The notes beneath the pieces were generated by a model that was given only the letters and a program-made list of their open reading frames with translations, was not told the origin of the DNA and did not search any database. A stretch of 64,000 bases of DNA from Pseudogymnoascus verrucosus (taxonomy: Eukaryota): the NCBI GenBank assembly GCA_001662655.1, contig KV460206.1; one strand, given 5' to 3'. Shown here piece after piece: positions 5,901 to 62,526 of this stretch (positions are counted from its first letter, which is position 1; each line of letters begins with the position of its first letter). The position numbers were made by a program, and so were the translations under genes.

Positions 5901-6058
5901 GTAGCCCACTGAAGCCGTTAAACTTTTCAGCCGCATCTTCTCGCTTCGAAGAAGGCAGTAGCAGCCTGTTAGAAAGCAAGGCTGTAAAGCCAGCGGCAGC
6001 AGCAGCTGATGATGGTGACATATACAAATCACTTGGCTGGGACGATGATGATTTATGA
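2980..6058 (+). CDS. SLD3: DNA replication initiation regulator Sld3; exons 2980-3186, 3236-6058 (start may be ATG 3001)
   Basis: Motifs YLDTLYLSKVSTAYFAKGPLSRARAAF, LRVREILLQIILILETLAL, FCLEVVVPFFSARLP and many S/TP CDK sites in the C-terminus. Intron 3187-3235 (GTTTGC...CAG) joins exon 1 in frame to the 902-aa ORF. Confidence 0.88.
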
Positions 6059-18400: not shown

Positions 18401-18509
18401 TCAGGTGGAGCTGTTTCAGAAGGTGGTTGTGAGGATTAGCGATGTTATGGAGGAGAGTACGAATAAGAGGAAGGTGAAGTTGGAGCTGGTTAGTGTTGGT
18501 GGAAAATAG
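15420..18509 (+). CDS. DIS3: Exosome catalytic subunit Dis3/Rrp44 (PIN + RNB + S1); exons 15420-15615, 15671-17879, 17930-18509
   Basis: KIVRELYLRQDIPCSSKLC, PIN motif LVPDTN and NDRNDR, RNB motif SIDPVGCQDIDDALH, YTHFTSPIRRYAD. Both introns are canonical and restore frame. Confidence 0.97.
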
Positions 18510-22738: not shown

Positions 22739-23578
22739 TTCGACGCGGGTTGCGCGCACGCGCGTAAAACTGGCAAGAAGCTCCGGTGCGCCTGGCGCTG
22801 TAGGTACAAGTACAGCGCGAACCCGTGTAAATGGGCTTAGTAGAAGGGTTTCGATGAGCTTGCCGCGCGGTTCCTTCCGCCCTTCAAGTCTGTTTTTATG
22901 GTGTATTGTTTTGCTTTGTGGGTTTTGACCGGAGACTCAGTCTTAGAAATGGGTTCGTGTCGTCAAGTCGGACGCAGCCTTGGTCAAGAAACCCACAGCC
23001 TCGTGCCGTGGTGGAGAGGTTTAGCGCCAACCCACGTGATTTTTCAGCCGTGCAGGGTTGCGTTTATGGTTCATGGTAGACTTCATCAAGGTTTGTAAAA
23101 TTGTGATCATTCATAAAATAAAGTCTTACGTTAAGGTAGAACATGCCTATATTTAGAGAGAGGGCTATAAATATATACTCTCTTTAATGAGTGGAAGATG
23201 GGTTTGCTCCCTAATTCCCGAAAAATCTATGTACAAAAGTAAGAAGGATGGTGAAGTGAGTCGGTTGGGTGTAGCCCTGTCTTTCTGGGTGACATTTCCG
23301 CTGCGCCTGTCGCGGGGAGATTTCCTTGAATCGTGTATTGCTGTAACCTACGCTAACACATGGCTCAAGGGAGGCTCTTCGCGGACAGGCGTAGCGAAGA
23401 CGTCACTCAGAAGTACAGGGCTACACCAGTCGATGGAAACCGTGAAAATCGTGGCTCAATGGCCAAAAACGGGCCATGATATTGTGCTCCCCAAGTGGTA
23501 TCAATCCCGTATATGTGCGCCAATAAAATCCCAATGCGAAATCCCAATAATAACGATTCTAACCTGCAGAATCCCGCA

Positions 23579-27426: not shown

Positions 27427-30400
27427 TCAGGCAACCACCCTCGCCCCCGCGAGGATATCCCAGTTCCCGCCACAGTAACAACGTCTCTGCTGCATGATCA
27501 GGAACTGCACCGGCGGCGTCAGGCTGTGGATATCCTCCATAGCCGCTGCACACCTTACGCATCTCCTCCACCGCCTCCCCGGGCGAGATCCCCTTGCATC
27601 TATTCCCTGAGCCTCCTCTGGTTCCATCCCCAGCTGTATCGGCACGCGAGAGAAGATGTCTATCGTGTGGTTTACCCTGTACTGTGCGCTACTCGTCGTC
27701 GCACTACCCTCCGCAGCCCCTTTGCCCGCAGATGCATTCGACTCCGGCAATCCCAAGATACCAAAGTCATGAAAGAACAACCTCGAAGGATCAATCTCCG
27801 CCCGCAACTTCGGGAGCTCCTCACTGAAAATGCGAGATATAGCCGGAGCCATAACCTCTGGCAGCGGCGCCCCAAATAGTATCCCTTGCTCGACGTTGTT
27901 TCTCTTGGAGTCACCCGGGGCGCCCTGTGCCTGCTGCTGGGACGGGAATTTCGCCGCGGTGTAGGCTTCCTTGACGACATCGGCGATGCGGGCGACGAAG
28001 GCTTCGAAGCGGCTGATTGGCACGATTGATGAGGCGGTTAGTGTCGCGATGGCGGTATATGAGGAGCGGAGGGAGTTGGAGATTAGCGGCGCGGACTGGC
28101 CGGGAGGAGCGGAGACGCTCTGCGCTGCTGACATGGCTTTGCGTGCGGTATAATCCAGGTGGGCGAGCCGGCGGCAGATTCCTGTGAGGAACCCTCTAGT
28201 TGCTGATGAGAGGAGGACGTGTAAGGCGATGTTGTTAGTTGCGAGTAGATGGGCACTGAGAAGTGGTATTGACCCGTCTTCGCCCTTGGTTACTGACTCG
28301 AAGACCTCTGGGTCCTCGGGGTGCAGAAGGCAGTCTATAAGCCAGGACATGAGGTCTAGGCACCACCGTACTGAGCCCGCGAGTAGACGTATGACCTCTG
28401 GAACCGTAAATCAGTAACTGAACATCATCATTGATATAACGAACTTACCGGAATCCTCTAGCCCCAATACCTTCTTCTGTTGATCGGGGATAGGTACTCT
28501 TATATTCATAGCCATTGTAATCAGAACCACACAATTTCGGAGTTGAAGGCTAATCCAAGCAATCTTCGACTCAAATGTCCGCTTGTGAGCATCGCCGTTG
28601 TATCCTAGAGCATTCTGTATACTGAGAGAAATCTGGATGGAGGGGTTTCGAATCAGCGAATCATGGTGTGATTCTTCAGAGTAGTCGACGTTAAATTTGA
28701 GGGTTTTGGAAACCTCTGAAACCAAGTCGAATGCAAAGGCTGTAAACAAGTCTTAGCATTGTGAGCCTGACGTGAGTTTGGTACACTTACATGACAAATG
28801 CTTGAATTTGCTAGCTGCCGCCATCAGATCATCATGGTTGCTAGAGTTCATTATCGCTGTCGAGCAAGCCATACTGAACCCTGCGATGACTGCTGCATAT
28901 TGTGCTTTCACAATGTTAGCTTATAAACCAGGAAGTGTAAGGGGGCTCTTACTATCTTCAAGGGAAGTGCCAATTTCACCCATGTTGTAAACCAGCGGAT
29001 TCCATTTAATCTTTCCATCACAGCCTTTCTGGACCACCGACAGATGAGTGGGAGACAGTGCTCCAACCAAACCTCCAGATATTGTTAGCAAGTGAAAGAT
29101 TTGAGAAAGGCTTTGAGGCTCACTGGGTTCATATCCATTATAGGTAAATCCTATTTGCGAAATATGAGAAAACTTGTCCAACCCTCCCAGTGTAAACAGT
29201 TCTGCCAAAGATGTTCGGTCACGATATTCAACCGACCCGTCGCTGTAACCAAAGCAAATGATTCGTTCAAAGTAAATTGCTTCAATCCAGATCACTACCT
29301 TATTGGATGTGAACCCTTCTTGCTTCTTTAGGCTTGGCGAAGGCTATAATATATGTCAACAGTGGGTCGACAATATAGATGGGGAATGCTCACCCCTGGC
29401 TTTGATCCAACACTATTCCGACGTGCACTTAGCTGTTCAAAGGCGGGATGAACGCTTGGAGAAGCCTCGGATAGCTCCCATCTGTTTATGAGGCTGTGGG
29501 TATCTTGATTATATTGAGACATCGAGTTTGGTAAATGAGATCTGATGGTAATAACTGTTGGTGATGTGGGGCGGCCACCAGGTCCATCAGGGGATGGCGA
29601 TAAAATAGACAAATGGGACAAAGCCGCCATAGATGGAGAAAGATGGAATGGATCCGAGGCATCGGTAGCACTTCCGTCCATCCAGTTGGTGTCAGATAAG
29701 AGCCGAATAATAATAGTTGGCGTTACAGTGTTCAAAGCTGGATTGACAGGCCGATCGGGAGGGTTGGCGGTAGGACTGCCCCATTTTATAGCTATTCTGG
29801 CTATGCTCAGCTTCTTTGCCGTTGTTGCAAATGCCAGAAGCAGGGTATTATCTAGTAGCCGAGTTAGTTCTGTTGCAAGTCTCGCAATTTCGGAGATACC
29901 TACTTTTATCTGCGCATATTGAAGCATGCGTGATGAGGTCGTCCGAGGAAGAGATACTCTCAATATCTGAAGATAACTCATGCCATTTTCCGTCCGCTTG
30001 AGGCCACAGGAGCGACAAAGAGCCACCTGTACTCACGGTGATTAGGGCGGACTTGTGGGCGTTTGGAAAGCAAGGCCCAAAGGCTATGGCTTGAGATATC
30101 TCGTACCTATAGTCTGTCGACGTCTTGACAGCTACGCTTTGAATGCCGGGCTAAGACTAATTTAGAGAAGTTCCTCTATCACGTAATGCAAACTTACTTG
30201 TCGCACATTTGATGGCGATAGATTTAGCCAGTACGCACCAACGACGGCACGAAGGTCCTCAATAGGACCTACGTTGCTGTTCCGAGTGAACGTGGGCTTG
30301 TTCAAGGACTGAGCAAGATTCAATATCGCAATACGACCAGCAGAATCTATGGCCGCCAAGTCAGCTCCATTGGGACTCCAACATAGATGCTTCAACTGGC

Positions 30401-31714: not shown

Positions 31715-33564
31715 ATGGACGACATGCCGGGCATGTCGCCGCCTCCGTCTCCACTGGAGTCCCTGGTTTCGTCCCCTCTGTCTATGCGATCCAGGTCACC
31801 AACACCGCCATACGAATACCCGTCTCCCAGGTCTTCTCAGCCGTCAGGGAGTAGGTCATCTTCTACAGCGCGCGACATGCAAGATGAGGCGGAGGGCCCG
31901 CCGCCAGCCAAGAAGCGCAAGCTTGCTCAACCCAAGGAGCGGACGACGGAGTACTTAGATCTGCACACCCTCGACGAGAGCACCGATCCGGAGAAATTGG
32001 CCAATGACGATCTGCAGCTTCAGCGTCTCCTCAAAGTCCTACGGACGAAGCGGAAGATTGTTGTAATTGCAGGAGCTGGAATTTCCGTTTCGGCAGGCAG
32101 TAAGGAAATTGCCCATCCTTTTTATCTTGCCATAAAACTAACCATGCTCTAGTTCCCGACTTCCGCTCTTCAACTGGACTCTTCACCACACTTCGCAGCA
32201 AATATGATTTAAAGTCTTCTGGAAAAGACCTCTTTGACGCGGCCGTATACAAGAACGACTCCTCAACAGCCTCCTTTCATGACATGGTTCGCGAGATGTC
32301 GCACATGACTCGGCAAGCAAACCCAACAATGTTCCACCATATGATCGCGACAATTGCGGAAGAGGGCCGTCTAATGCGCCTCTACACGCAAAACGTAGAT
32401 GGGATCGACACATCCCTAGAGCCGCTCCGGACAAACATCCCTCTCAATTCGAGGGGTCCCTGGCCAAAAACTATCCAGCTCCATGGCGGATTGGAGAAGA
32501 TGGTCTGCACCAAGTGCCGCGCGCTATCTGACTTCGACGGCTCCCTTTTCGAAGGTTCCGAGCCTCCATCCTGTAAAGCATGTGAGGAGTTAGATGAGAT
32601 CCGAACCACCCTAGCCGGAAAGCGAAGCCACGGCATTGGCCGCCTCCGCCCCAGAATAGTCCTCTACAACGAATACAACCCCGACGAAGAAGCCATCGGC
32701 GCCGTCACAACAGCCGATCTCAAGAGCCGCCCCGACGCCGTCATCGTCGTCGGCACGAGCCTGAAAGTCCCAGGCGTAAAACGCATCGCACGTGAGATGT
32801 GCCAAGTCGCGCGCGGTCGCAAAGACGGCTTCACAGCCTGGATCAACCACGGGCCTGAACCAGTCGGGCTGGAGTTCAAGGACTGCTGGGACTTGGTGAT
32901 TCGCGGGGACTGCGACGAGGTTGCGCGCCATGCTGCGATTCCGAAATGGGATGATAAGGATGTTGGACCGTATACTGTTCTTCCTCCGCGAGAGACTCCG
33001 AAGTCCCCGATGAAGGTTGAGCTGGGTGGTGCGGCGAAACATAAGGCTGTTGAGAAGACGCAGGGTATGGTGACGCCCACTGCTAGCCCGCGAACTCGCA
33101 GCCCCGCGCCGGCGAAGGACTTGAAGAAGATGAAGCAGCCCAAGCTCTTCGCTTCTGGAACCGCTACTAAGCCCATCACCAAACCCACCTCCACAGCAGC
33201 AGGGGCTAAAAAGAAGGCTCCCGCGCCCAAGAAACCCGCTGCTGCGAAGAACGCTAAGATTACTAAGGCATTCACAACCACCAAGTCCTCCAAGGCCATC
33301 TCGGGAAAGGCCATCAAACACGAGCCTATCGCGCCTATGTTCCCTAACCTCAGCAAGGTCGCGCCGTCATCACCTATGCTCCCGCTGTCGTTAGTGGAGG
33401 TGCGGAATAATACCGAGACCACGCCGGTGAAGCGCGAGTTTGGCGGCAAGGCGGAGGCAGCGGATCCGGATTCGCCGAGCGCGCAGTTGAGGAGGGAGGG
33501 GGGGAGGGAGACGGTGTCGCCGGGGGTAGTGCCGAGGGGGATGGGGCATTTGATTGAGACTTAG
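31715..33564 (+). CDS. HST4: NAD-dependent histone deacetylase of the Hst3/Hst4 class; exons 31715-32099, 32153-33564
   Basis: IVVIAGAGISVSAG|IPDFRSSTGLF, RLYTQNVDGID, QLHGGLEKMVCTKC...CKAC, GRLRPRIVLYNE, IVVGTSLKVPG. Confidence 0.9.
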
Positions 33565-34294: not shown

Positions 34295-35250
34295 CTACTC
34301 CCCCACATCCCCATCCTCATACTCGATCTCCGCCAAATCGCCCGTCTCCCTCGGCTCCTGCGCCTCATGATACTGAATCGCATCATCGAGATAACTCAAG
34401 ATAGCCCCCACACTATCCTCATCCTGCACATCAAGCCTCAAATACGACACCATGCTAAAACTCTCAATCAACCCCGCCACCGCGCGATTCAAGCGCCGGA
34501 AACTCTCCCCGCGCATCATACTCCCGTTCTCTAGCGGATCACCCACGCCCGGCTCCTCTCCACCGCCAAGGTCAGAGGGGTCGTCGTCTAGGAGTGATGC
34601 GTCGGGGTCGAGGAAGCGCTTGAGCTCCCGCTTGCCGACTTGTCCTTTTACTAGGTCCATTTTGGAGAGGATGTTAACGTGGGGGACTTCTAGCATAATC
34701 ATCGCTGACATCGCCGACAGTGTCCCCGCAAAAAACTTCGCCCGATCAACTACAAATGTTGCCTCGAGCAAATATGCCGCCGCGAGATTAACACTCAACC
34801 CCCCCTGCATCGTGAGATGCTTCACCAGCGCCGGCAGCACAGGGACATGCGTGTATAGCTCGATCTGGCCCGGCATATCGATTACAATAAGGTACTCCTC
34901 GGACAGCGGATCGATAGCTTCGGTGATGAAATCGAGGTTCTCGAGGAGGAACTCGAAACAGTAGATTAGACCCCCGTTGGGCCCCAGCCCCATTTCCTCC
35001 ATCACGTCGGAGAGGGAGATCAGGTCTTTGATGTCCAGGTCGGGCTCGTGGTCGAAGGTCTCCGCGGCGGGGTCCAGGTTGATGTAGAAGGAGGACCGGC
35101 GGTTGTGGTGGAGGTGCGTGATGAGAGAGCTGCAGAAGGTGGTCTATGGGCGCCGGGTTAGATGGGGGTTCAAGGGACGGTGAATGGGGATGGGGGACTG
35201 ACCTTGCCGGCGCCCGCGGGGCCCATGACCAGCACACCGAATTTGGACAT
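34295..35250 (-). CDS. GPN3: GPN-loop GTPase 3 (RNA polymerase assembly/import); exons 35250-35203, 35143-34295
   Basis: MSKFGVLVMGPAGAGK|TTFC, NLDPAAE, GLGPNGGLIYCFEFL, DMPGQIELYTH. The GPAGAGK and IYCFE patterns fit Gpn3 better than Gpn2. Confidence 0.9.
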
Positions 35251-36521: not shown

Positions 36522-37818
36522 ATGACTGCCAACGGATCTACCCCCGGTGGCCACCACAACCAGGGCACCTTCCTGTTCACCGTAAGTTCTTGAAAAACCC
36601 CGCTCTGGCGAGAAATATCAAATCCTGACACATTGCCACAGTCCGAGTCCGTCGGTGAGGGTCACCCAGACAAGATCGCTGATCAGGTCTCCGATGCCAT
36701 CCTCGATGCCTGCTTGACCGACGACCCTCTCTCCAAGGTCGCTTGCGAGACCGCTACCAAGACTGGTATGGTCATGGTCTTCGGTGAGATCACCACCAAG
36801 ACCAAGCTTGACTACCAGAAGGTCATCCGTGGTGCCATCAAGGACATCGGTTACGATGACTCCGCAAAGGGCTTCGACTACAAGACCTGCAACGTCCTCG
36901 TTGCCATTGAGGAGCAGTCCCCCGATATCGCCCAGGGTCTTCACTACGAGCAGGCTCTTGAGCAGCTCGGTGCTGGTGACCAGGGTATCATGTTCGGTTA
37001 TGCCACTGATGAGACCCCTGAGCTCTTCCCATTGACCCTTCAATTGGCACACAAGCTTAACGCTGAGATGAGCGCTTCCCGCCGTGATGGCTCCATCCCA
37101 TGGTTGAGGCCCGACACCAAGACCCAGGTCACCATTGAGTACAAGCACGACAACGGTGCCGTTGTCCCTCTCAGAGTCCACACCGTTGTCGTCTCTGCCC
37201 AGCACGCCGAGACCATCACCACTGAGCAGCTCCGCAAGGAGATCCTCGAGAAGGTCATCAAGAAGGTCATCCCCGCCAAGTACCTTGACGACCAGACCAT
37301 CTACCACGTAAGTTGACCTTGACACCCATAAAATAAAAACAGCTGTCTGACAAAACTAGATCCAACCCTCTGGACTCTTCATCATCGGTGGCCCACAGGG
37401 TGATGCCGGTCTGACTGGCCGCAAGATCATCGTTGACACATACGGTGGATGGGGAGCTCACGGAGGTGGTGCTTTCTCCGGAAAGGATTTCTCCAAGGTC
37501 GACCGCTCCGCCGCCTACGTCGCCCGCTGGATCGCCAAGTCCCTCGTCAACGCCAAGCTTGCCCGCCGCTGCCTCGTCCAGCTGTCGTACGCCATCGGTG
37601 TCGCTGAGCCCCTCTCCATCTTCGTCGACTCGTACGGAACCTCCGAGAAGACTTCCGACGAGCTTGAGAAGATCATCCGCGCCAACTTCGACCTCCGCCC
37701 GGGAGTGATCGTCAAGGAGCTCGACCTGGCCAAGCCAATCTACTTCCAGACCGCCAAGAACGGCCACTTCACCAACCAGAACTTCACCTGGGAGAAGCCG
37801 AAGACCCTCAAGTTCTAA
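36522..37818 (+). CDS. SAM2: S-adenosylmethionine synthetase (methionine adenosyltransferase); exons 36522-36581, 36642-37307, 37360-37818
   Basis: [72 protein letters not shown]; strong C-ending codon bias. Confidence 0.98.
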
Positions 37819-41688: not shown

Positions 41689-44600
41689 ATGGCGCCCGAG
41701 ATGACAGGGTTCAGCGTCCTAGATTCGACACAGACACCACCCTCGCCGCCATCGCGATTGCCGACACCTCCTCCTCCCTCACCACCACCACGCGCCATGG
41801 CCCGCCCGCTCCCCCATCCTGATACTCCTTCTGCCTCATCCCCATCTGATGTCTCCTCCTCCCTCCCCTCACCACAGTCCCAGTCCGTGCAGCAACCAGG
41901 CTCCGATCGACAATCTGCCGAGACAGTGAGGCCGCGAGCTTCGTCCCTTGTTTCAACCACATCGTCCATCAAGAGAAAACCGTTACCGTTGTCGGCGCTG
42001 CCTCTAGCTGCGAGATATTCGGTCGAATCGAGCGCCAGCACCTTTGACTCACCGTCCGCCAGATTCTCGAGACGCCCGTCGATAGACAGTCCCACGATCT
42101 ACGACCCTTCGGCACACCGGTTTCCTATCTTCGTGGAGGAGGCTGGTCTGGACCAGAGACAAAGAATCTCAACGTACGTCTGTCTCGTATTCCTCTGCTC
42201 ACCAAGAATACCACCCTACCTACCAGCCCTCCGAATTGTTTCCTCTTCGGGTTAAAGATACTGACCGGATAAACAGTCTCGACATCCCACAGGAGCCCGT
42301 CAGACCGCTGTCACCTGTAATCGAAGCTTCAGCTCATCAGACAGATTCGACTGCCACACCAAATCAACCCACCCCTGCCACACACACACACACACATACA
42401 CACTCAATAGGTGGCACCCCTCCGACCTCGTCTGTCCGCCATGCAAGATTGAGGCGTGACTCGGCCCTCAGCACCACCTCGAGTTATTACACATACGAGG
42501 ATTCGAGTCCAGCACACCGTTCCCGCTCAGGAACAGAAACAATGTCCCTTTTCGCGGCAAAGCCACAACCACCCAACCTCAGCCTGCCCGATAACGATGC
42601 CCGCGGCGCCTCCTTCGACGCAACCAGCATCAAGAGCCCCTCCGATAAACAACTCCCCAAGTCGCCTGGAGCGTCTAAACTTGGTTCCTTCTTCGGGTGG
42701 GGTGGAAACACCTCGCCGGCCTCATCGACGACTACCTTCTCGGAGGATAAGAACTTCTCGCCCATACCCTCGCCGACGTCCCCGGCGAAACACTTCTCAA
42801 AGTCGATTGCCAGCCGTGCAATTCCGATTGGCATCGACGTCCCTAAAGCCAATTCGGCGAATGAGAGCTTCTTCGACGAGGAATTCGCACCATCTAGCGT
42901 AGAAAGCGAGTCTCACGTCGGAGAGATGGAGGAGGAACTCAAAACTATCAGTGCCGAGCTGGCCACATCTATAAGGAGGGAGATGGAACTAGAGGATCTT
43001 GTTGAACGATTACAATCGGAAGTTGACAACCCTCGCGGACCTAATAAGAGAACAAGTGATTATTTCTCCGACTCTGGTACGAGCTCGGTCAAGTATGGCG
43101 GTGATACCGATTCAAGAACGGAGGAGATTGAGCGCATGCAGCGGAAAACGGACCGCGAAAAGGCCCAGATTCGACTGGATTGCCAAGAAAAGGTCCAAGA
43201 AGAGAGGACACGACGATCAGGTCTAGAGAAGAAGATTCGCCGGTTAGAAGAGAAGGTATCGCATGTTGATCTCGCGTCGATGAACTCCCTCGATAGCGGC
43301 GGCCGATTAAAAGACTTGGAAGCGACTTGCGAAGACCTACGGCGACGACTTAATGACGAACGAAAGGTCAAGGAGAACTTTGAAGATCTCCTGACAGCAC
43401 TCAGAGGCGAACTACACACCTCGCATAATGAGCGTGACAACCTCAGAGACGAAGTTGTTCCGCAACTACGAGCTCGGGTTGAAGGGCTAGAGGCGCAGGC
43501 CGCTGAACATGAGAAGCTAGCATACGAGCACACGAAGGTGCAGCAGCAGATGCAGCTGACTAGAGGCGACAGTGTGCGCAAGCTGCAGACTGATATACAA
43601 TCACATATGGACAGCATCGGTGAAGATGGTCCACAACCTAATTCCGGCTTGAAGAGGTCTACTTCGGTGAGGAACTCTACAGTTACTACACCTTTAATGA
43701 GGTCGCGGCCTACTTCAATGTCCCTGGCAAAAGGCGTCGAGTCGCGAGACATGCTCCTTGAACGCGTGAAGGACGTCGAAGCCCAACGAGACGCCCTCCA
43801 CCGCGCATTGAAGAGTCTCCTAGAGAGACAAGAGCACCAAACTAAAGAAAACGACAAGCGCCTCCGCCAGCTCGAGATCGAGCGCGATAACGCCCTCAAG
43901 AGCGCACCCAAACGCGCTGGCTATGGTAAAGACGTCTCCAGCTTGAGGGATGAAATCAACACCCTCCGTCGCCGCGCCGATGAAGCCATAGAGCAAAAGT
44001 GGCAGTGCGAGAAGGGCCTCAGCGGCCTTAAGATGGACCTCGACCGCGCCGAGCAGGAGATTGGATCCCTTCGCAACCTCCTCCTCGATAACGGCGTTCC
44101 CGTCCCGGAAAACATCCCGGGGTCGCGTAGCAGCGCTAACTCCTCGTCGCTGGAGCAGGCATACTCTGAGCTCAAGAAGACGTACGCTGCGTCCCTTGAT
44201 CGCGTGAAGGCGCTGGAGAGCCAGGTTCCCCGCGATGGCACGACGGATGAGGCACTCCGATCCCTCCAAACCTCCCTAACCACCGCCATCGCCGACCGCG
44301 ACTCCGCGGTCTCCTCACTCAACACCACGGAGCTCTCGCACCTTTCCACCGAGACTGATCTCGCATCCCAGCTCCAGCATGCTGCGGAACACATCGAGGG
44401 ACTAGCGGGCCAGGTGCGCGCCCAGCTGTCGGCGAACTCCACCCTCCGCGCCCGTCTTGCGGAGACGATCAAGCGCGGGGAGGTGGAGCAGAATGCCAAT
44501 GTGGCACGGATTATGGGGATGCAAGGAAAGCTGCGCACCCTCGAGGAGGCCCTCATGGCTGCGCAACAGGCGTCTGAAGAGCGCACTGCTCGACACGAAG

Positions 44601-45010
44601 ACGAGGTCCGCGAGCTCAAGGAGTCCCGCAACAGCCAACTCATCCGCGTCAAAGATTCCCTTCGCTCCCCGCGCCTCTTCGCGCCCAAGTCCCCCATGAG
44701 CCCCCTCTTCGCCGGCAACGCGAGGAGTCCCCGCATCGACGTCACGTCCGGCGGCAAGGCGATGAACGTCGGCGAGGAGTCGAGGGTGGGGATGCTGAAG
44801 AGCCGCGTCGAGGAGCTGGAGCGCGCGCTGGGAGAGGCGGATCGCGAGATGGAGGAGGTGGTGGGGAGGATGAATGTCGCGCAGATTGAGGTGATGGAGC
44901 TGCAGAATGAGAGGGAGGAGGCGGTGAGGGCGACGAGGATGCTGGAGAAGAGGGTGGAGGAGGAGAGGTTGAGGGGGTTTGAGGGGAGGTTTAGGTCGTT
45001 CCAGACTTAG
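41689..45010 (+). CDS. Long coiled-coil protein with P/S-rich N-terminus (hypothetical); exons 41689-42173, 42277-45010
   Basis: Intron 42174-42276 (GTACGT...ACTGAC...CAG) joins the 188-aa and 924-aa ORFs in frame. Motifs SPGASKLGSFFGW, ELATSIRREMELEDLVERLQ and KRTSDYFSDSG, followed by extensive heptad repeats. Confidence 0.8.
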
Positions 45011-47712: not shown

Positions 47713-48733
47713 TCAAACAAACGCTCTTCCCGAATTGCTAGACGCAATACGATGGTGCTGCTGATACCCCACGATCCTCTCCATCTTCCACCCCCTCTTC
47801 GCGGCCTTCCCTCCCTCCACCAACGCCACCACCTCGCTGGGATGCACGACATTGAAAATGACTATAGCGCAAAACATCAATAGCGCATCGAATATATACA
47901 GATAGACCTCATGCGACAGCAGATACCCCGAGAAGCCTTGCAGGTACTCCACGACGCGGAAAATCGACCGGATCATAATAAGCACGCTTGCTATATATAA
48001 AGCGATAAGGTGTTTGCGCCAGGGCACATCGCTGCTCTGAGCACGGGTTGTGGGAACTTTATGCATGGCAACGTCGAAGTGGACGGCTACGGCGATGAAG
48101 CAGCCGAAGAAGAAGAGTTGAACGAAGAGGCCGCCGACGACGAGGTTGGAGCCAATTGTAAGAGAAGATGGGGTGCCAGAAGCTTGGATGCCGCCGCCTG
48201 GAATGGAGTGTGAGAAATTGTTCATATTGTTGAGAGAGTCTGGATTAATTGGGAGAGAAACGTACCACCTCCTTGGATGAGGAATGAAGCGACATCACCG
48301 CAGACGAAGATCTTTGTGAGCCACTTCTTCTTTATTAGGGCGTGTGACTCGCCGTCGACGAGGAGGATGATTCGGCTCAGCTCCATGTAGATGCTTGCGG
48401 CGAAGAGGGCGGGTGCGACGAGGAGGAGGAGGGTTTGCATGATGTATGGGCCTAATGTCCAGTCTGGGGACTGTTGACTCGACATGGCACGGCCAATATA
48501 GCCGATCCATTCAACTGATAAGTTTGTTAGCAAGATCTCATTGGCGGCGCAGGAAGCTTATAGGGTGACGCACAGAATCCTCCTACTATCAGAGGAATCA
48601 TAAACCATGCTCTGGTCCGTAAAAGCTGGTAGCAGTGAAGCAATGTCGTTGCAAAAAATACCGCTATGAATATAACGGCTGCCACCATTGAGGGGTCATA
48701 GTGGTAGAATTTAAACCCCGATGTCGATGCCAT
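47713..48733 (-). CDS. RTA1: RTA1/Rsb1-like lipid-translocating exporter (multi-pass membrane protein); exons 48733-48574, 48514-48266, 48197-47713
   Basis: FYHYDPSMVAAVIF, GGF|FEWIGYIGR, LLLVAPALFAASIYMEL, TKIFVCGDVASFLIQGGG, IRSIFRVVEYLQG...HEVYLYIFDALLM; two canonical introns. The symbol denotes the family, not proven orthology. Confidence 0.9.
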
Positions 48734-51201: not shown

Positions 51202-54200
51202 TTAGGTAATGACCGGCTTGGACGAGACAGGTTCGACCTTGGTGCTGCTAGGGTTCGGTTTGCTACCAGATGTGTCGCTGCTAGCTGCCCTGGCCTTGGC
51301 TGCGGCCAAGATTTTGCGGTGCATATCTTCGAGTGCGCGGCCCTGAGGCTTAGGGTCTAGTGGCCACTGAGAAGCAACATAGGTCCTGTAGAACGTTAGT
51401 ACTTGATTTAATATACCCGGTGAGTAGATCCCACTTACCAAAAACTTGGCCTCAGGGCAGACACGTCCTCGTCTGCCTCTAGGCTATCAATGAAGTTTCC
51501 AATGGTGACTAATTCGTTCTTCAAGAGATTCGCACGCTCCTTCTGAGACTTGATCTTCTCTTTAGTAGCACCCCCGACCCGTCGGAAAGCATCCTTCATT
51601 GGTCGGAAAATGACTCGCAACATTTGATCCTGCTCGTGGTTGCTGCTGCTCGAGCCGTTCTCAGACTTGCGGTGCTTGTGGCGATCAACACGGTCATCAT
51701 CTGCAGCACTATGTTTGCGCTTGAGATCGGGCTTGTGCCTGTGATCCTCGTGGCTCGAGCGGCCCCTCTCGTGACGATGATCACTCATGCGGTCACGTCC
51801 TTCAGATTGACGATGGGCCTTGCGGATCTGTGGCGCCGGTGACGCAGATACTGACGCGCTATGTTCGGCTCGGCGAATACCATTCTTCTTGTTATTCCGA
51901 TGGTGGTTTTCAACGGCTCGTCGGGCAGCTTGGTCATCCGAGTATCTTGCTTTCAAGACAGATAAGAGGTAATCAGCTCGTCGAACAAGATGCACGGCCC
52001 CAGGTGACTTGGCCGTTGTATCTTCACCTTGTATACGCAGCTCTTTTTTGTCTACGCGATGCTCTTCGAGGAATAGCTTTTCTTGTAGCCCTAGTTCAGA
52101 GTCATCCCGGATATCTGGCCAGGCTCCATAACCATGGCGGTGAATGCCAACAAGCAACATGCCGTCTTCTTTCGCACCCCACTCGCAGGAATAGTGCGCG
52201 GCCTTTGACGCCTCGGGAACCCTGAACTTTCCAAAGTCAGAAAATGCTTCAATGACCTCTTTCAGCATTCTCATCTCGCCCGGCCGTTCAATCACAGTCT
52301 CTGCATTTAAACGCTTCACCCCGAGGAAATCAAATAAGACAGCTTTCTTATCTTTCTTCGTAAGAGCCTTGTTAGACTCTCGTTCTTTAGCCTCCATTTC
52401 AGCACTAGCTGCCTTCAATCGTTTGTCACTCTCGTCAATGATAGATTGAAGCGTGGCCTTCAGCATGTCGCGGTCACGGCCGACAAGGCGAGCATCCTTG
52501 ATCAATTCGTCCGGTCTGTCATCAATGGAACCGTAGCGTAGGAAAGCTTTGAAGAGCCATCTAGCTTCTTTCTCATTAAGTTCTCTCTTTGGGTCCACCT
52601 TGTCGGCCTCCTTGAGCTCAAGTTCCTCTTGTTTAGCCAGGTCTCGTTCGCGCTTCTTCGCCAAACGTTGTTCACGCTCCTGTTCGGCAGTGACCTTTAA
52701 TGCAGCCTTTCGGGGTGCGTTTTCCTCGACGACCCTAGCCAAGTACTCTTCATGGGCCTTCTTTTCCTCCTCAGCTTTAATCCCCTCGAGCTGATCCTTC
52801 GGGATAATGTCATCCCACTCAAGGTCGAGCTTCACGTCGGTGTATTCGAAGCTTCTCAAAAAGTCCTCTCCTCCATCGGCGACCATGCCCTCGGGAACTT
52901 CCGTCCGGTGCTCTTCGGCATTTTCAAGAATAGAGTCGATATCCAATTCCTCCAATTTCTTCTGGTTGCCGGACTGTTCAAACATCTTCTGGCCTCGTTT
53001 CTTAAGAATGCGCGATATATCGTCTGAGGATTTTGGCTCTTCAATTTTCCCAGCTTTCTGTGCCTTCTCGCGGAGTTGGTTCATTTCCTTGTCTGTTACG
53101 CCGCGCTGAATAGTGATGAATTCTAGCATGAGCTTATTACGGGCGCGCTCAAGAATCTCTTCCTCAACAGTTTCTTTAGAAAGTAGTCGATAGACACTAA
53201 CTGGCCGCTTTTGTCCAATCCGATGGGCACGAGCCATAGCTTGAAGATCCGCCTGCGGATTCCAGTCAGAGTCGAAAATGATAACAGTATCTGCAGTCAT
53301 AAGATTAATGCCAAGACCGCCGGCACGCGTCGAAAGCAAGAAGCAAAAGTCCTGGCTGTCGTCTGCATTGAAATGATCAATGGCTAGCCTTCTTGGGCCA
53401 GAAGCCATGGTACCATCAAGTCTTTGAAAAGCGTGCCCGCGTAATTGTAAGTAGTCTCCGAGGATGTCGAGCATTTTTACCATTTGACTGAAAATTAGAA
53501 CACGGTGATTGTCCTTTTTGAGCTTCGTCAACAATCGATCCAAAAGCATCATCTTGCCACTGCTAGCAATGAGTCCTTTCAGCATGTCCTCGCGCCTGTC
53601 CGCTCCCTTCAAAATTTTATCCTCGGCGTTGGGGAACATGTATGGATGATTACTGGCCTTCTTCAATTCCATCATGATGTTGAGAAGAGATTGCTTTTGG
53701 CCCTTTGAACCTTCGTTGAGTGCGGCGTAGTTCCGAGTTAAAATATTTTTATAGTACTCCAATTGCACATCGGATAGTTCAACTCGGATGATCTTCTCAG
53801 TCTTTGGAGGAAGATCATTCTCAACCTTCTGCTTTGTCCGGCGCAAAATGTATGGCTGAATCTTAGTCGTCAATGCTGCAATCTTTTCTCCCGCAGCTTC
53901 CGAGGTCAGATCCATATCATCCTCAATATCAACCTCGCCAGGCATCAAGAAATCCATGAGCGCAGAAAGTTCACCGAGTGTATTTTGCACTGGAGTACCA
54001 GTAATGAGCAGCCGGCTGGGAGTTTTGAAATCCAAAAGTCTCTGGTAGAGCTGAGATTCTCTATTCTTCAGGCGGTGCGCTTCGTCAACCGCCATGAACT
54101 GCCACTTGATCTGGCCTAAAAAGTTGGCATCAGCCAAGATGTATTCGTAGGATGTGAGCAAGACATTAAACTTTGGCTTGCGAACATCCCCGCCCGACAA

Positions 54201-56460
54201 AAGCTCGCAGTCTCTTATGATACTACGGGATGATTCTTTGCCATTGTAGACAACATAGTTGGTGTCTGGTGCCCAAAAATCGAAGGTATCACCCCATGCT
54301 GGCATTGTTGACAAAGGGACGATGACCAAGAATGGGCCATTCTGATTTCGGTCATGGCGCAACCAACTCATGAACGAAACTGTCTGCACAGTTTTCCCGA
54401 GACCCATCTCGTCGGCGAGAATGACATTTTTGTTCTTGCTCCAATTGTATGCAAGAAAATTGAGTCCTGTGATCTGGAAGTCTCGAAGCTGGCCACCCTT
54501 GATATATGATGGTTGTTCACGGATTGGGACATGTGAACGTCGCGTATTCGGATTGGATTCAGACTTATCTGAAGTTAGTATTTGGGAAGTACGGTTTAAA
54601 TACCCGTCGATTTTGTCTTGAGCAATTTCGCCAATGAGAGTTTCCGATTCCCATGTACACGATTCGTAGTAGAGGCTTTTCCATTTGACGTAATATTCCG
54701 CTCCATCATCGCCATCTCTAACACCGATGACTCTCTCAACTTTAGTATAGTCAAGGAGGGCATCGGCATCTCGTTCTCTGTCTAGCATCCACTTCTCTTT
54801 TTCTTCCGGCTGAACATCAGGGTCGGTTGCGAAATAGACGTCTTGCAGGACAACCTTTCGATAGTAGTTCTCCAGCCGTCGGTGACCTCGGACAGTGCCT
54901 AAATAAACTGCATCCTCCCATGTGGCATGGTAGTATGACTTCCCTTGCCATTTAACGTAATACTCGAAGTCATCACGTGTTGAGCCCGACAGACTGATGT
55001 CGACACCGTCCTTCGGCCTGTGTTTGAGAACAACTTCGATATACGGAGAATTATCCTCGTATCCCTCAAGCGCTTGGATGGGCGTCATCATCTCTGAATC
55101 TTCCTCATCAGCTTCGCTTTCTTGGTATGCCCCAGCGGAGACCTGTGCCGCGCGACGGTTGCTCCATCTGGCAGCAGGCACTGGTAGTGCATCCATCTGT
55201 CGGCGCCGGTTCTTCTTTATTAGATTCCGGGCACGAGAGCCACCGTATGTGTCGGATTCGGAGTCATTGGATGCTGATCGAAATACTGGAGTCTCTCGTT
55301 TGGAAGCTATAACGACGAGTATCAGCAACGGCGGCAGCAGGAGTAGATGGACTGAACTTACTTGGTCGAGATTTTTCTGCTTTCCGCCTCTTTCGTGGGG
55401 CAACGTCTGAAGCAGTAGCATACTGATCTTCATCTTCATCGTCATCGCTATCAATCTGGAAACATTTAGGATACTCGCCCGGGTATTGCAGGTTGGATAT
55501 GTCTTACTATGGTGCGATGTTGGACAGGCCGGCCCTGGTTATGTCGCGTTAAAAACTAGTCCCACAGACGGTTCGGCGTTGATACGTACACTTCTGCGCA
55601 ATCCATATAGCTCTGGATTGGCTTTTATATGCTCATCGTCCTCTATCCCCAATTTTCTCTTTGTTGGACGTCGTGAATCGTGGGATGACGAACGGTCGAT
55701 GCGCGGGTGGTGATGGGCCACTGCCCGCATGCCCTCTTCTGCATCGAACTCGTCATTATCAGACCCCTTGTCGTTGTCATCTTCTGATTCATCGGAAGGT
55801 TCGGTGTCCTCAGCGGCGAAATCGGATTGGTGATGTGGTGTGCTCGACGGCGACGGCGAGGCTTCTGCCGCTGGGGCTTCACGTACTTCGGATAAGTCGC
55901 TTCCCGAGTGGTCTGAAGCGGCATCGTCGGCGACCGAGATATCCCCAACAGGAGAGTGGTATCCATTGGACATTGGGATGGAAGTAGTCGTGTCCATATT
56001 TCCTGACGGCGACGAGCTGCCTGCTATAAGACGGTAATGTCAGCGTGTATAAACTTCCAAATGAAGCAATCGGCATCGGGTTCACACGGTGTAGTGCGTC
56101 TGCCATCTGCGACGGTAAATCGATATGCACAGCGTCTAAAACACATCTAAATGGCTTAATATCCTCGCCGGCGCATTGCATTCGATGATATATCAGAATG
56201 AGGCTGATGAGTTGCACTCGGGGTAGTGGACACACGCGCTCCCAAAGCGCCCGCTCAAGTGAGTACAAAATCTGATAGGAACCTCAGAGAGTATGTATGC
56301 ATCAACTTCGACACTTCTACATGTCCAAGAACCTGAACAATGTAGCTGTATAGAAGACGGCGTAACTGTGAGCGGGCGGTAGGCACGGTGATAGCCTGGG
56401 AGCAACTGGAACACAATAAGGCAGCAAAAGAACGTTGGAAAAAGAATACTTACAAGCCAT
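51202..56460 (-). CDS. CHD1: Chromodomain helicase DNA-binding remodeller Chd1/Hrp3; exons 56460-56454, 56023-55590, 55534-55508, 55455-55362, 55306-51439, 51385-51202
   Basis: Tandem chromodomains (YYVKWQGKSYYHATWE; YYVKWKSLYYESCTWE); SNF2 motifs ILADEMGLGKTVQT, VDEAHRLKN, LLSTRAGGLGINL, DSDWNPQADLQAMARAHRIGQ. The 7-nt first exon ATGGCTT|GTAAGT splices in frame but is less certain; the alternative start is 55997. Confidence 0.95.
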
Positions 56461-56875: not shown

Positions 56876-59094
56876 ATGGCTGATAAACTTACCAGGTATG
56901 CCACGCCACCGTTCATGGCTTTAGAAGCATTAACCCAGGCAGCTCACTGGATATTATTGGGCTGTCTTGCTGTAATATATACTGATTGTTTGATTTGAAT
57001 AGAATCGCGATCGTCAATGGCGACAAGGTGCGAAACATATTGCCACCATGGCTACCCCACTACTACCCCGCGTTGAAGTTTAAGGGATCATAAATGCTAA
57101 TTAAGCCCGTCGCATATAGTGCAAACCGAAGGTATATACATTTGTTCGAACGATAATGGTATGATGCTAACGATGGAAATAGAAATGTAGGCAAGAGTGC
57201 AAGAAATCGTGCCCAGTTGTTCGCAGTGGTCGTCTCTGTATCGAAGTCGACTCCTCATCGAAAATCGCTTTCATATCCGAGACACTATGCATAGGATGTG
57301 GTATTTGCCCCAAGAAGTGCCCATTCGGCGCGATCAACATTATCAACCTGCCGACCAACCTCGAGTCCCAGGTTACCCATCGTTATTCCGCGAATAGCTT
57401 CAAGCTGCATCGCCTGCCCATGCCAAGACCCGGGCAGGTGCTTGGTCTTGTCGGAACCAACGGTATCGGAAAGAGTACGGCCCTGAAGATCCTGAGTGGG
57501 AAGCTCAAGCCCAATCTCGGAAGATTTGACAACCCCCCAGACTGGGAAGACGTCATCAAATACTTCCGTGGCTCGGAACTACAAAGTCGGTGAACCCTGC
57601 GAGAGTGGAGAAAGCAAATGTTCTGACAAAGGCTACAGACTATTTCACGAAACTCCTCGAAGACGACCTCAAGGCTGTCGTAAAGCCCCAATATGTCGAC
57701 CAAATCCCCAAAGCTGTGCGTGCGCCAGACAAGTCTGTCCAGGCCTTGATCGAGGGCAGGTCTCAGATGGATAACCTCAAGGAAGTCTGTGATGTTTTGG
57801 GTGAGCAGATATACTCATTTATATTGACTGTTGTACTAATTACACACAGAGTTGAACCATGTTATGGATCGTGATATCAACCTTCTTTCCGGAGGAGAGC
57901 TTCAACGTTTCGCCATCGGAACAGTCTGTGTCCAGCAAGCCGATGTCTACATGTTTGACGAGCCGTCGTCCTACCTGGATGTGAAGCAGCGTCTGAGTGC
58001 AGCCAAGATCATTCGCTCCCTTCTCAAATCATCTAACTACGTGATTTGTGTCGAGCACGATTTGTCCGTCCTGGATTATCTTTCCGACTTCATCTGTGTG
58101 CTCTACGGTCGCCCAGCAGTATACGGTGTTGTTACTATGCCTGCATCGGTCCGTGAGGGCATCAATATTTTCTTGGATGGACATATCCCAACCGAGAACT
58201 TGCGATTCCGAGATGAGTCCTTGACTTTCCGCATCGCAGAAGCCGGAGACGAATTCATCGTTGATCGTTCGCGCGCCTTCCAATACCCGTCCATGGAGAA
58301 GACTCTAGGAAACTTCCATCTTACGATTGACGAGGGTGACTTTACGGACTCGGAAATTATTGTGATGATGGGAGAGAACGGAACGGGAAAGACGACATTC
58401 TGTAAGATGCTGGCTGGCGCTACAAAGCCCGATGGAAACAGAAAGGTCCCCGACATGAAGATCAGCATGAAGCCCCAGAAGATCACACCTAAGTTTGACG
58501 GCAGTGTTCGCCAGTTGTTCTTCAAGAAGATCAAGACTGCGTTCCTTTCTCCCCAGTTCCAGACCGATGTTGTCAGGCCATTGAAGCTCGACGATTTCAT
58601 TGATCAGGAAGTGAAGAACCTGTCCGGAGGAGAATTGCAACGTGTGGCTATCGTCCTCGCCCTTGGTATGCCGGCTGATATTTACCTAATCGATGAGCCG
58701 TCTGCCTACCTCGATTCCGAGCAGCGTATTATTGCTGCTCGCGTCATCAAGCGATTCATCATGCACTCGAAGAAGACAGCCTTCGTCGTAGAGCACGATT
58801 TCATCATGGCAACTTATCTCGCCGATCGTGTCATCGTCTTCGACGGTGAGCCCGGAATTGAGGCTCGCGCTCACACACCCGAGTCCCTGCTTACTGGTTG
58901 CAACAAGTTCCTCAAGAACCTTGATGTTACCTTCCGCCGTGACCCGACCAACTTCAGGCCACGTATCAACAAGCTGAACTCTCAGCTGGACCAGGAACAG
59001 AAGTTAAGTGGAAACTACGTGAGTATTTTCCATCCATATGCCCTAGAAATTTACTAACAAGGCCTAGTTCTTCCTGGATGAAGATAAGAGTTGA
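56876..59094 (+). CDS. RLI1: Ribosome recycling ABC ATPase Rli1/ABCE1; exons 56876-56895, 57003-57027, 57120-57131, 57183-57585, 57639-57800, 57850-59018, 59068-59094
   Basis: [32 protein letters not shown] and [13 protein letters not shown] (Fe-S), GTNGIGKST, two [17 protein letters not shown]. All six introns restore frame. Confidence 0.97.
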
Positions 59095-59688
59095 AAAGGG
59101 CACTCTATATAAAAACACACCGGCTTTAGATGCATCATTAGGCGTTACTGGGTTGGCATCAGGAGCGGTATTGCATAGAGGGGGCTCTCCTGGATTGGCT
59201 GAGGAGGAAGATGTTAACGAAGACGACGATCCGGATGATTAACGATGGCGGCGGCGCTCTATCCCCTGTTGCCTGGTCCTACACTGATAGCCGTTCTCTT
59301 TTCTGAACATGGTATAGATTGAGGGGCAATGGATTAAGCGGATGAGTGCCGTCTGGGTGGTGATTTAAAGCTAGCATGGAGAACAAAAATCTTCCACTGT
59401 TGGCATAGTCATTCATATTAAGTATTGAAACGACCTGAGCCCGAAATGGATTCATCTACGGCTTTAAAACTAGTTCATCGAATAAAAGCAAAGAGATACG
59501 ATATACACACCAGATGCCCCACTAGTTGTCCCTGGGCTTTATGATCGTGATTCGGATGTCTCTTTTGGTGCTGTTAAACATTGGCTTGAATCGAACTGTC
59601 ATGTGGCCGAGGTTATCGTGTTAGGCAAAAAATGTTAACTTGTTACGTACAGGTCTTGTACAACGCCTTCCGATGGCATGTTAGTTCC

Positions 59689-62526
59689 CTACTCTTCTTC
59701 AATTTCGCCTTCCTCGCTTCCCGAGTGTACAGCTGCATCCTCCTTTGGTGGCAATGTTGTGGTTGGCGTCTTAGCCTTCACGGTACGATCCTGTGCGGGA
59801 GACTCTCGTGGCGGGGTTCGTTCTCTCCTTGTCCTCTATAGAAATATAATGTTAGGGCAATGTCCTTACTATATCACAAGTGTTGTTATGGGGTATCGTG
59901 AGGGTTATAATAGGTCATTCCTCCAACCCCACCATCAACCGGGAGTCTCTTTGAGCTTAGCTTCTTCAACCACAACAATGACTATTGTTTGAAACCTCGA
60001 GAGCACTACTCTTAAAGATCTTGTTGGTCAAGCGTACCTACTCCTAATACGGGGAGGCCAGACGGCCGAAATTGTGATCACGCTGAGCGCAGTTTTCAGA
60101 AAATCGACGAACCTTAGTATCCCTTTTGCTACCCCCGCTTTCAAGGTCACTGTCAGCCCTTCTACGCCTGACCGAACTCGGCTTCTCATCACCATAGGGC
60201 AACTCATCAATGCTACCCCTTGGATCACCTCTTCTCCTATAGAGCCTCTCGCGGTCGTCATCTCGCTCTCTCTTGTCGCGGGGATCCCTCTCATGGCGAT
60301 CGAGAGGATCATCACGGCGTGTTCTGTGAGATCTATCAAAGTCGCGATCCCTTTCAGACCGATCGTTTCCTCGGCGAGCAGGTGAGAGTAGAGTATCTGC
60401 AACGTTACCTTTGCGGTAGTTCTTCTCACGATCGGCGATAGCCTTGCGCCTATCTGCTTCATATGCATCGGGCTCAGGGCTGCGGCTTGGCCTACCATGG
60501 CGACCACCATTTCGGTGAGATCTCTCACCTCTATCCCTGTCAATTCTCTCTCTTTCCCTCTCTCGATAGCTTGATCGCTCGATAGACTCTCGGTCACGGC
60601 GCTTGGCTCGATCTCTCTCGTCATCCTCCTTGTCTTTCAAACGACGGATAACCTTATCGAAGGCAGAACGTCGTAGATCATCAGTGGGAAGGGCAAGGTA
60701 CTCTCCTGATCGCTCAATACGCGGCTTAACCTTCTCATAAGTATCATCCACCTTGATCGGAGGCTCCAGATGTTTCATGTAAGATCGCAGGTCATCTACA
60801 GCACGGCGTTGCTTTCGCTCTGCCATGTGTTTGTCGTCTTCGTTTCGACGAGATACCTTCTCATGGAGCTATAATCTGTCAGCAAAGCACGTGGAACCCC
60901 AGGATTTTCATTCCACTCACCCTTCCAAATATCAAAGACAGAGCGTCTCGATCGATGTTAGCAGTACGCCGGTCTGTTTGCATAAGGGTAAGAAACTCCT
61001 CAAAGGTGGTCTTCTGCTGTATCTCAAAACGTTTGTCCTGCAAGGTGTTAATAAAGGTAATCTTGACAGAGAAAGGGGGGTTACGAACATCCAACACGTC
61101 CAAAATATCATTCCGAGTTCCACGCAAGGCTCGTTCCTCTTCTTCAACAATGTCCCAAAACAAATCCAGTGGTGTAGAGCCGGGTTGACCGAGCATGTTC
61201 GTGTACCTTTCGTCAGATTGAACTAAGGGGTATACTTGACTCCACTTGGCCCCAGCCTTGATCTTTCCAGCTTTCCTCAAGTCATTCAGAAGGTCAATGA
61301 AGCGGTCGCGGTTCTGGCGTTCTCGTCTTGATTTCTGATTTTTCTGCTGTTGGCGAGCATCGTTGAATGTTCTCTCCAGAGACTTGATATGATTCTCGAA
61401 AGCGGTCAACATATCAGATTTCGTGAGTGTCTGGAATTTCTCATCACCTTTGAATCGCTGGTTTGATTGGATGATACCTTGTGCCTCTGCCCATCTAGTA
61501 TATGGTTCCAGGTTAAGACCGTGCATGATCTCAACAAGCTCGTCCATAGCGGCCCTGCGAGTCGAAGCCTCGCGCTCCATGTTCGTCTTCTTCAACTCAA
61601 TAATGTAATCTTCAAATAATTGGCGTCGCTCATTGTCATCGTCTGTAGATCTGAAGATCGTTTCGCCCTCAATGATAGGTCTAGCAGTCTTCCAGCGTGT
61701 ATAATGCTTGATCTCAGGGTGACTTCGCAGCATGGTGCTAAAATCTGTACGAAGCTTGGCAAGCCTCTCCTTCGCCCGATCCTTTTCTTCCAGGCGCACC
61801 TCAACCGCAAATTTCTCAAATGCAGCCTTGCGATCCTTTGGGTCCTTCAAAGCTCTGTATTGCGGGTCTCTGATAATTGCGCGCATGGCCGCTTCCCAAG
61901 TCCAATCCGGCCTCACTCCGCTGCGTCGGAGAAGCTTCAAAAATGCTGCTTCTGCTTCTTCGAAGGTTGAATAATCGGGGTCGGTATTTGCGGGCACGAA
62001 CACTTGAGCTCTGCTACCGTTGACATCGTTGCCGTAAGCGATCTGACGAGCTTCCCCAACTGGCTCTCTGTCGCGTGGCTGATCGTATTGCGAGAAACCT
62101 CCACCAGCAACAAAGGTTGGGGCACTACATAGATTAGATCAGCATGTATAAGATAGATCATAAAATCTGTAACTTACGATGGTGCTGCGGCTTGCGCAGG
62201 AACAGCTTCTTTCGCAAGCGCATCCTTGAAGACCGCTGGCATCTCCCAGGAGCTCTGTTTGCTTTCGGTATTATACCAGTATTTACGGCCCCCTTCAGCA
62301 GTGTATTCCTTCCATGGTTGATCGGCCAGAGCGCGCTGTTTTGTGTTAGCTTATTTCCATGTCATAATCCCGTTGTTTATCTTACCTCCACTACAGTCAT
62401 GAGCTCCTCAGGTTTGGTCCACTGGGTCGCTTTGGTGATGGTGTTGTAGTAATACACTCGCCCTTCAGCATTGCGCGCCTCTTGCCAAAGGCCCGGAGGG
62501 GCTATGTGCCCATTGATGCCGTTCAT
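59689..62526 (-). CDS. PRP40: U1 snRNP protein Prp40 (2 WW + FF domains, RS/RD-rich tail); exons 62526-62386, 62335-62178, 62124-61089, 61037-60921, 60868-60113, 59835-59689
   Basis: WW domains WQEARNAEGRVYYYNTITKATQWTKP and WKEYTAEGGRKYWYN; FF repeats AEAAFLKLL...WTWEAAMRAIIRDPQY and HYTRWKTARPII; ends HSGSEEGEIEEE*. Confidence 0.93.

Follow-up and report, generated by a model that had tools for sequence, protein, structure and literature searches.

Unproductive splicing is a known means of autoregulation among splicing factors, with poison exons or retained introns in the genes of serine/arginine-rich (SR) proteins and small nuclear ribonucleoproteins (snRNPs). A separate body of work describes short acidic motifs that bind Ars2. 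S. pombe Ars2 has been crystallized with an EDGEI peptide of Red1 (dissociation constant about 5 µM), and the same report describes binding of the FLASH EEGEI to human ARS2 and gives [ED][ED]GE[ILV] as a relaxed search pattern (PMC9402713). The consensus of the ARS2-recruitment motif (ARM) has been stated as (E/D)(D/E)G(E)(L/I/V), together with a list of known bearers (bioRxiv 10.1101/2023.07.25.550453). Plant PRP40 reportedly binds directly to SERRATE (PMC9864873, PMC9709975; Knop 2017, Stepien 2022), and both S. pombe Pir2/Ars2 and human ARS2 are reported to associate with splicing factors (PMC7229227). Here we analyzed the PRP40 gene in a 64,000-nt stretch of Pseudogymnoascus verrucosus DNA (contig KV460206.1, assembly GCA_001662655.1), to which we refer as the window. 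An initial annotation of the window had proposed that two competing 5' splice sites (donors) in the last PRP40 intron toggle a C-terminal EEGEI motif as a feedback switch. Our analysis indicates that the locus probably consists of an ordinary spliced terminal intron with a chance second donor, followed by an exon whose tail is plausibly an Ars2-docking motif.

The features of the gene, in window positions, are as follows.

59689..62526, minus strand: coding region of PRP40 (U1 snRNP protein); spliced model, six exons, 784 aa
62385-62336, minus strand: intron 1, 50 nt (spliced model)
62177-62125, minus strand: intron 2, 53 nt (spliced model; joint also in RNA contigs)
61088-61038, minus strand: intron 3, 51 nt, GTTCGT donor
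60920-60869, minus strand: intron 4, 52 nt (spliced model)
60112-59836, minus strand: last intron (277 nt; phase 0, separating K736 from R737)
60107..60112, minus strand: used donor AAG/GTTCGT, T at +3, first G at 60112 (RNA contig joint)
60044..60046, minus strand: first in-frame stop TAG on intron read-through (from translation)
60032..60037, minus strand: proposed second donor TAG/GTACGC, G at 60037; present in the sequence and judged a chance hexamer
59851..59855, minus strand: branch-site consensus CTAAC, 16 nt ahead of the acceptor TATAG (read from the sequence)
59689..59835, minus strand: final exon, 48 codons and the stop TAG (RNA contig coverage)
59701..59727, minus strand: conserved tail HSGSEEGEI, with EEGEI at 59715-59701 (alignment of 38 orthologues)
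59528..59688, minus strand: 3' untranslated region (UTR), minimum extent from a spliced contig of run X1

In the spliced model the ATG lies at 62526 and the stop TAG at 59691-59689, and joining 59835 in frame gives a 784-aa protein that terminates in HSGSEEGEIEEE. By Pfam, one WW domain (PF00397) is encoded in exon 1 at E 8e-12 and another in exon 2 at E 6e-9; exon 3 encodes FF domains, matched both as three stretches of PF01846 (E 1e-50) and as FF_PRPF40A (PF25432, E 8e-19). When translated exon 3 was used as the query, 569 proteins of at least 605 residues were recovered, with top E-values down to 1e-224. The best match was a 784-aa Pseudogymnoascus sp. protein with 99% identity and the same tail; Leotiomycete proteins named Prp40, U1 snRNP protein or formin-binding protein came next, and Schizosaccharomyces Usp104 was among the diverse representatives recovered. 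With two WW domains, an FF array and named orthologues, the gene is PRP40, a member of the Prp40 family, and orthology predicts that its product associates with the U1 snRNP. The gene model and its tail are already present in the public annotation. The initial annotation had reached the same identity, and all of its coordinates were correct, including the length of the last intron relative to the other four (277 nt versus 50-53 nt in the spliced model), the first donor at 60112 with its in-frame splice, and the position of EEGEI.

We then asked which donor is seen in RNA. Runs X1-X3 carried no RNA label, and we treated them as RNA since their contigs show two spliced joints. Contigs of X1 and X3, which belong to one study, join 60113 to 59835 and skip exactly 277 nt; because the same contig set also skips exactly intron 2 elsewhere in the gene, it represents spliced RNA. 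Run X2 had zero contigs spanning either of these introns. The joint in the X1 and X3 contigs establishes that the first donor, at 60112, is the donor in use. The X1-X3 contigs contained no joint from 60037 and had depth 0 over 59870-60097, although contigs miss rare forms and the empty coverage does not imply that retention is absent. A contig of run X19 was continuous through the last intron; it is DNA of a very close relative. As a check on the two donors proposed initially, this is a weak test, with joints at 60112-59836 only, in two of the three RNA-like runs, and none from 60037.

The second donor and the stop ahead of it are real as sequence. On read-through of the intron, VRRFSENCAQRDHNFGRLASPY is added before the TAG at 60046-60044, giving a 758-aa product that ends ...GRLASPY and is identical for a retained intron and for use of 60037. 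Translation bears out that either event would remove the EEGEI tail, which removal of the last intron attaches. The in-frame stop, at codon 23, comes where it is expected in non-coding sequence. The donor pattern GT[AG][ACT]G[TC] had 284 matches on both strands of the window, and the number expected in 271 nt was 0.6, with a probability of 0.44 of at least one. Moreover, the +6 base of GTACGC is C, whereas T or A stands there in each of the gene's five real donors in the window.

To place the intron among relatives, we used the 38 aligned orthologues to scan metagenome contigs and obtained 80 PRP40 loci, 60 of which extend to the C-terminal end. Of the 60, 40 lacked an intron at this place and 20 had one in exactly the same position, in phase 0 following the lysine codon AAG. 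An open-frame test identified 17 of these 20; L036, L053 and L065 make up the rest, their intron of 63 nt preserving the reading frame. Sixteen intron rows were compared, comprising the window and 15 loci, two of them near-identical. Their introns measured 277, 275, 273, 267, 208, 203, 134, 126, 79, 63, 61, 60, 58, 54, 51 and 48 nt. A donor hexamer of the same pattern was absent from the homologous place in all five of the other long introns (L004, L005, L002, L011 and L029), which means that the second donor is not a conserved feature. L005 has a match elsewhere, at +156, and GTTTGC at +23 in L029 is found once the pattern is relaxed to accept T at +3. Ten of the 16 rows (48-134 nt) had zero second donor-like hexamers, and the 48-79-nt versions have no space for one. 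GTACGC, 75 nt downstream of the used donor, thus looks like a chance match with no role as a competing donor. The proposed competition between donors was therefore not supported, given the lack of an RNA joint at 60037, the 0.6 matches expected by chance and the C at +6; on conservation, the same pattern scored 0/5 in the long introns, with only the looser pattern giving a comparable hexamer, at +68 of L002.

The interior of the intron was compared by pairwise local alignment against mononucleotide shuffles. When all six long introns were aligned, conservation was confined to the donor, the acceptor and the branch site, whose C-T-R-A-C was invariant. The window and L004 interiors aligned with a score of 26 against 17.2 ± 2.2 for shuffles, reached by 1 of 300; the window scored 23 with L002 (reached by 5/300 shuffles) and 22 with L011 (7/300), and L004 scored 23 with L002 (1/150). 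What the window shares with L004 and L002 amounts to two short blocks, with shuffles averaging 17. The remaining interior pairs, including the window with L005 and with L029, were at background level. At four-fold sites of exon 3, L004 had an identity of 0.50 and the other loci 0.34-0.40. The long introns appear to be homologous sequence that has drifted freely and whose length is not conserved. The position of the intron is conserved and probably old, and its interior is without a recognisable functional element. We also considered sequestration of the donor by a downstream CGG-rich block and set it aside, the pairing register being inconsistent among the window, L004 and L002 when the alignment was read by eye.

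The donor itself showed one unusual constant. T stood at +3 in 14 of the 16 last-intron rows (nine with GTTCGT, two each with GTTAGT and GTTTGT, one with GTTAGC). L002 (GTAAGA) and L073 (GTAATG) lack it, and the donor of an additional truncated locus, L007, is GTACGT. The full octamer GTTCGTCG was found in six rows. Donors of introns 1, 3 and 4 of the same loci served as controls, intron 2 being left out because its peptide anchors were mostly too weak, and T at +3 occurred in one of their 34 rows, with A, G and C used freely in the rest. The sole control row with +3 T was the window's own intron 3. Fisher's test on a conservative count of 13/16 gave P = 2e-8, which is not a true probability since the rows are related. 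Position +4 and all bases downstream varied among rows while +3 remained T, and this points to selection; it suggests that the efficiency of the last-intron splice may be what is selected. Donors normally have at +3 a purine, which pairs with U1 snRNA; one with T there should therefore be suboptimal. A U-rich or pyrimidine-rich tract downstream of the donor, of the kind that gives Nam8/TIA1-type help, was not detected as an enrichment (mean T 0.34 versus 0.36 in controls, P = 0.41).

Several side observations concern these donors and the retained frame. The intron 3 donor is GTTCGT in this genome only, with A, G or C at +3 in 12 other loci, and two of the five donors in this U1 snRNP gene are consequently the same rare hexamer; at the intron 3 position L006 has a GC-AG intron with the donor GCAAGT. 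Retention of the last intron leads to an early stop in 14 of the 16 rows. In L036, L053 and L065 the 63-nt intron (e.g. L036:2180-2242) has no stop, and its retention adds 21 residues and keeps the tail; the related locus L066 has a 61-nt intron with a stop. The retained frame reads V-R-R in several rows, from GTTCGTCGN in six and from a different donor, GTAAGAAGA, in L002 (8392-8658). We judged V-R-R as a conserved peptide to be coincidental, because other rows read VRY, VRS, VRG, VSL, VSQ, VCL or VM and the valine codon leaves its third base free.

The exon that follows the intron ends in a conserved acidic tail. HSGSEEGE (H773-E780) was invariant in the 38 aligned orthologues, whereas the flanking basic stretch was variable. 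Among the matches listed, [DE][DE]G[DE][ILVM] was present in 109 of 120 relatives, 108 times within the last dozen residues and once in a fused model. Four of the 11 relatives without the motif end right after reading through the last-intron donor (...KVR...), six end before the tail is reached (some are labelled partial in their source), and one has an unrelated end. A HMMER search of 1.84 billion representatives returned 149 further proteins, and the motif lay inside the last 25 residues in 47 of the 81 of these diverse proteins with a length of 600 aa or more; source names were found for 16 of 20 representatives looked up. Usp104 of Schizosaccharomyces cryophilus and S. japonicus ends SSEEGEIH and SSEEGEIR, respectively. 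Prp40 also ends in the motif in Pneumocystis, Neolecta, Saitoella, Taphrina, the orbiliomycete Drechslerella and the dothideomycete Rhizodiscina; in the basidiomycetes Clavulina, Atractiella and Pseudohyphozyma it ends EEGEI, and a chytrid Prp40 ends EDGEL. Trichomonascus (Saccharomycotina) Prp40 ends YLEY, without the motif, and frog PRPF40A shows no more than a looser version, SEGEL, close to its end. When the 48-residue final exon was searched against PDB sequences, the sole hit was a repeat protein of the flagellin hook IN motif family (E 0.002), which has no bearing on the tail.

Other ends were noted in the same set. Eight shorter Prp40 relatives (P0173, P0177, P0196, P0204, P0219, P0224, P0247 and P0259) end L(E/D)Y and not EEGEI; one of them is named and comes from a Saccharomycotina yeast, and this end may be a different C-terminal motif. 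The animal-type PRPF40A relatives P0218, P0239, P0250 and P0260 (the last from frog) end SE(G/S)ELE...RR.LL.QL, that is, a looser form of the fungal acidic motif and then a helix-like stretch.

The window EEGEI matches the published ARM consensus, and the fit to an ARS2-type acidic motif claimed in the initial annotation is thus borne out at the level of sequence, as far as the sources on the consensus go. Filamentous ascomycetes generally have Ars2, and budding yeasts are not known to have kept it. Pfam did not detect an ARS2 domain in the 51 long open frames of the window that were scanned, out of 88 before antisense and overlapping ones were dropped. Human PRPF40A is listed in supplement file 7 of PMC7229227, from a cross-linked pull-down, with six unique peptides as 'ARS2 specific and enriched' and with empty control columns. 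The term 'prp40' occurs 0 times in the main text of PMC9402713, and 'prpf40' 0 times in the main text of bioRxiv 10.1101/2023.07.25.550453. In the literature outside subscription-only papers we found no description of an ARS2 motif in Prp40 or of Prp40 autoregulation. The Prp40 tail is a plausible Ars2-docking motif, apparently an undescribed one.

Taken together, the observations are probably best explained by a simple sequence of events. Splicing from the first donor would remove an intron of old position ahead of a 48-codon final exon, the length of the intron having presumably drifted among lineages between 48 and 277 nt. The final exon would then supply a predicted disordered basic stretch that closes in the conserved acidic tail HSGSEEGEI. 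[quoted passage not shown]

Several points weigh against this explanation. The RNA evidence comes from two runs of one study in the form of assembled contigs with a depth of 3-8, from which rare variants are dropped, and a minor isoform from 60037 or some intron retention may be compatible with contigs of such low depth. The conservation of a weak-looking donor means that the intron may not be simply constitutive. In L002, GTTAGT at +68, a match to the looser pattern, lies just past that intron's own in-frame stop, as in the window; the chance of a hexamer of this type within about 20 nt is ~0.09, and the arrangement is therefore not wholly unique. On the side of the tail, plant PRP40 is reported to require the last 40 residues of SERRATE, which are not obviously the motif-binding surface, and the association of human PRPF40A with ARS2 may be indirect because the pull-down used cross-linking.

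Against this background we weighed the other explanations of the intron and the tail. It is very improbable that the donors at 60112 and 60037 compete and that the level of Prp40 or the U1 snRNP decides between them, switching the EEGEI tail on or off, as the feedback-switch claim would have it. Both hexamers and the stop between them are indeed in the sequence, L002 has its GTTAGT at a similar place, and the used donor is non-consensus and conserved. However, no RNA contig starts from 60037, the only joint being that of 60112; GTACGC, with its C at +6, belongs to a hexamer class expected 0.6 times by chance, and it lacks a counterpart of the same pattern in L004, L005, L002, L011 and L029, while 10 of the 16 rows (48-134 nt) are without any second donor-like hexamer. 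The claim is therefore left unsupported. Less improbable, but still unlikely, is regulated retention without a second donor, in which the suboptimal +3 T makes the intron sensitive to the U1 snRNP and the unspliced mRNA yields tail-less Prp40 or is decayed, which would adjust how much Prp40 is made or how strongly it is coupled to the cap complex. The +3 T in 14/16 rows against 1/34 in other introns, with +4 onward variable, is in its favor, and so are the location of the intron directly 5' of the exon with the conserved motif, the early stop in 14/16 rows and the report of Neurospora prp40 mRNA as a direct exosome target (PMC4549623). On the other hand, the intron is uncovered by contigs of the three RNA-like runs, no U-rich tract is enriched downstream, the 63-nt intron of L036 reads through in frame, and 40 of the 60 loci keep the tail without an intron, so that control of this kind can be done without. 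The feedback would also run in an awkward direction, because more U1 activity would give more full-length Prp40. A combined view appears rather doubtful to us, namely that the Prp40 C-terminus is a true ARM that ties the U1 snRNP to CBC-Ars2 in competition with decay and export adaptors, and that in intron-bearing lineages the suboptimal +3 T donor makes inclusion of the motif U1-dependent and thereby tunes the coupling of splicing to the cap.

The remaining two explanations can be set aside with more confidence. The length of the intron, five times that of its neighbours and matched by long versions at five other loci, might be due to a hosted small non-coding RNA (e.g. a small nucleolar RNA) or a structured element, but this is barely credible. 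An Rfam search at E up to 10 gave four weak matches in 59500-60300, all outside the intron and far under the gathering scores; folding of the intron was no better than that of shuffles (z = +0.75, no excess structure), its interior is barely alignable among relatives, and the homologous intron is as short as 48-79 nt in other rows. That the gene truly ends at the TAG at 60046-60044, the downstream EEGEI frame being there by chance, is almost certainly wrong. Four database models of relatives do stop just past the same donor, but the exons are joined in spliced RNA contigs, and the tail is invariant in 38 orthologues and contiguous with the upstream exon, intron-free, in 40 of 60 loci. An ordinary terminal intron and a putative Ars2-docking tail remain the preferred explanation.

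If the preferred explanation is right, the Prp40 tail would be one more member of the known class of ARS2 motifs and may be another client of the Ars2 'effector' surface. The factors known to compete for this surface act in decay (Red1/ZFC3H1, ZC3H18), export (PHAX) and histone processing (FLASH). A splicing client would offer a physical route for the long-known help of the cap complex to the U1 snRNP at the first intron, and splicing commitment would enter the same competition that decides RNA fate. A test is feasible in a model organism, since fission-yeast Usp104 relatives end in the motif and a crystal structure of S. pombe Ars2 with the motif exists. The conserved +3 T poses a small unexplained puzzle for splice-site selection.

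Elsewhere in the window, the following genes were named from Pfam domains in the open frames.

3221-6055, plus strand: Sld3
6704-7342, plus strand: histone-fold protein
8484-10499, minus strand: Rsc7/Swp82
15658-18506, plus strand: Dis3/Rrp44 exosome nuclease (PIN, CSD, RNB and S1 domains), 40 kb from PRP40
22216-22836, minus strand: Apq12
27430-30032, minus strand: Med16
32104-33561, plus strand: Sir2-family protein
34298-35143, minus strand: GPN-type ATP-binding protein
36594-37313, plus strand: S-adenosylmethionine (SAM) synthetase
42086-45007, plus strand: DUF7603 protein
47716-48294, minus strand: RTA1-like protein
51438-55538, minus strand: CHD1
57183-59054, plus strand: ABC protein with two ATPase cassettes, adjoining PRP40 downstream

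Neurospora prp40 mRNA is reported specifically as a target of Rrp44 (PMC4549623); the occurrence of the Dis3/Rrp44 gene and PRP40 as neighbours is probably a coincidence. A weak SNORD123-like match at 59624-59709 on the minus strand (16.8 bits against a gathering score of 45) runs across the PRP40 stop codon and the 3' UTR and was taken as chance.

How this locus compares with the described systems differs from one system to the next. Within the Prp40/Usp104/PRPF40A family, the window protein has 65-99% identity to proteins named Prp40 or U1 snRNP protein, and nothing distinguishes the gene from its orthologues. It resembles the genes under unproductive-splicing autoregulation in that it encodes a splicing factor and has a conserved suboptimal splice signal beside an important exon. 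It differs from them in that the RNA contigs showed no alternative isoform, no intronic elements are conserved and two thirds of relatives lack such an intron. The contact between plant PRP40 and SERRATE, which the initial annotation had cited and which is indeed reported in PMC9864873 and PMC9709975, is a direct contact of Prp40 with an Ars2 orthologue, but in those reports the requirement was mapped on the SERRATE side. A further likeness is to the ARMs of Red1/ZFC3H1, FLASH, ZC3H18, ZC3H4, NCBP3 and PHAX. The window EEGEI is exactly the FLASH motif; the stretch around it is acidic and apparently disordered, and its flanks are much less conserved than the motif itself. Unlike those motifs, EEGEI stands at the extreme C-terminus of a splicing factor and not in a factor of decay, export or histone processing.

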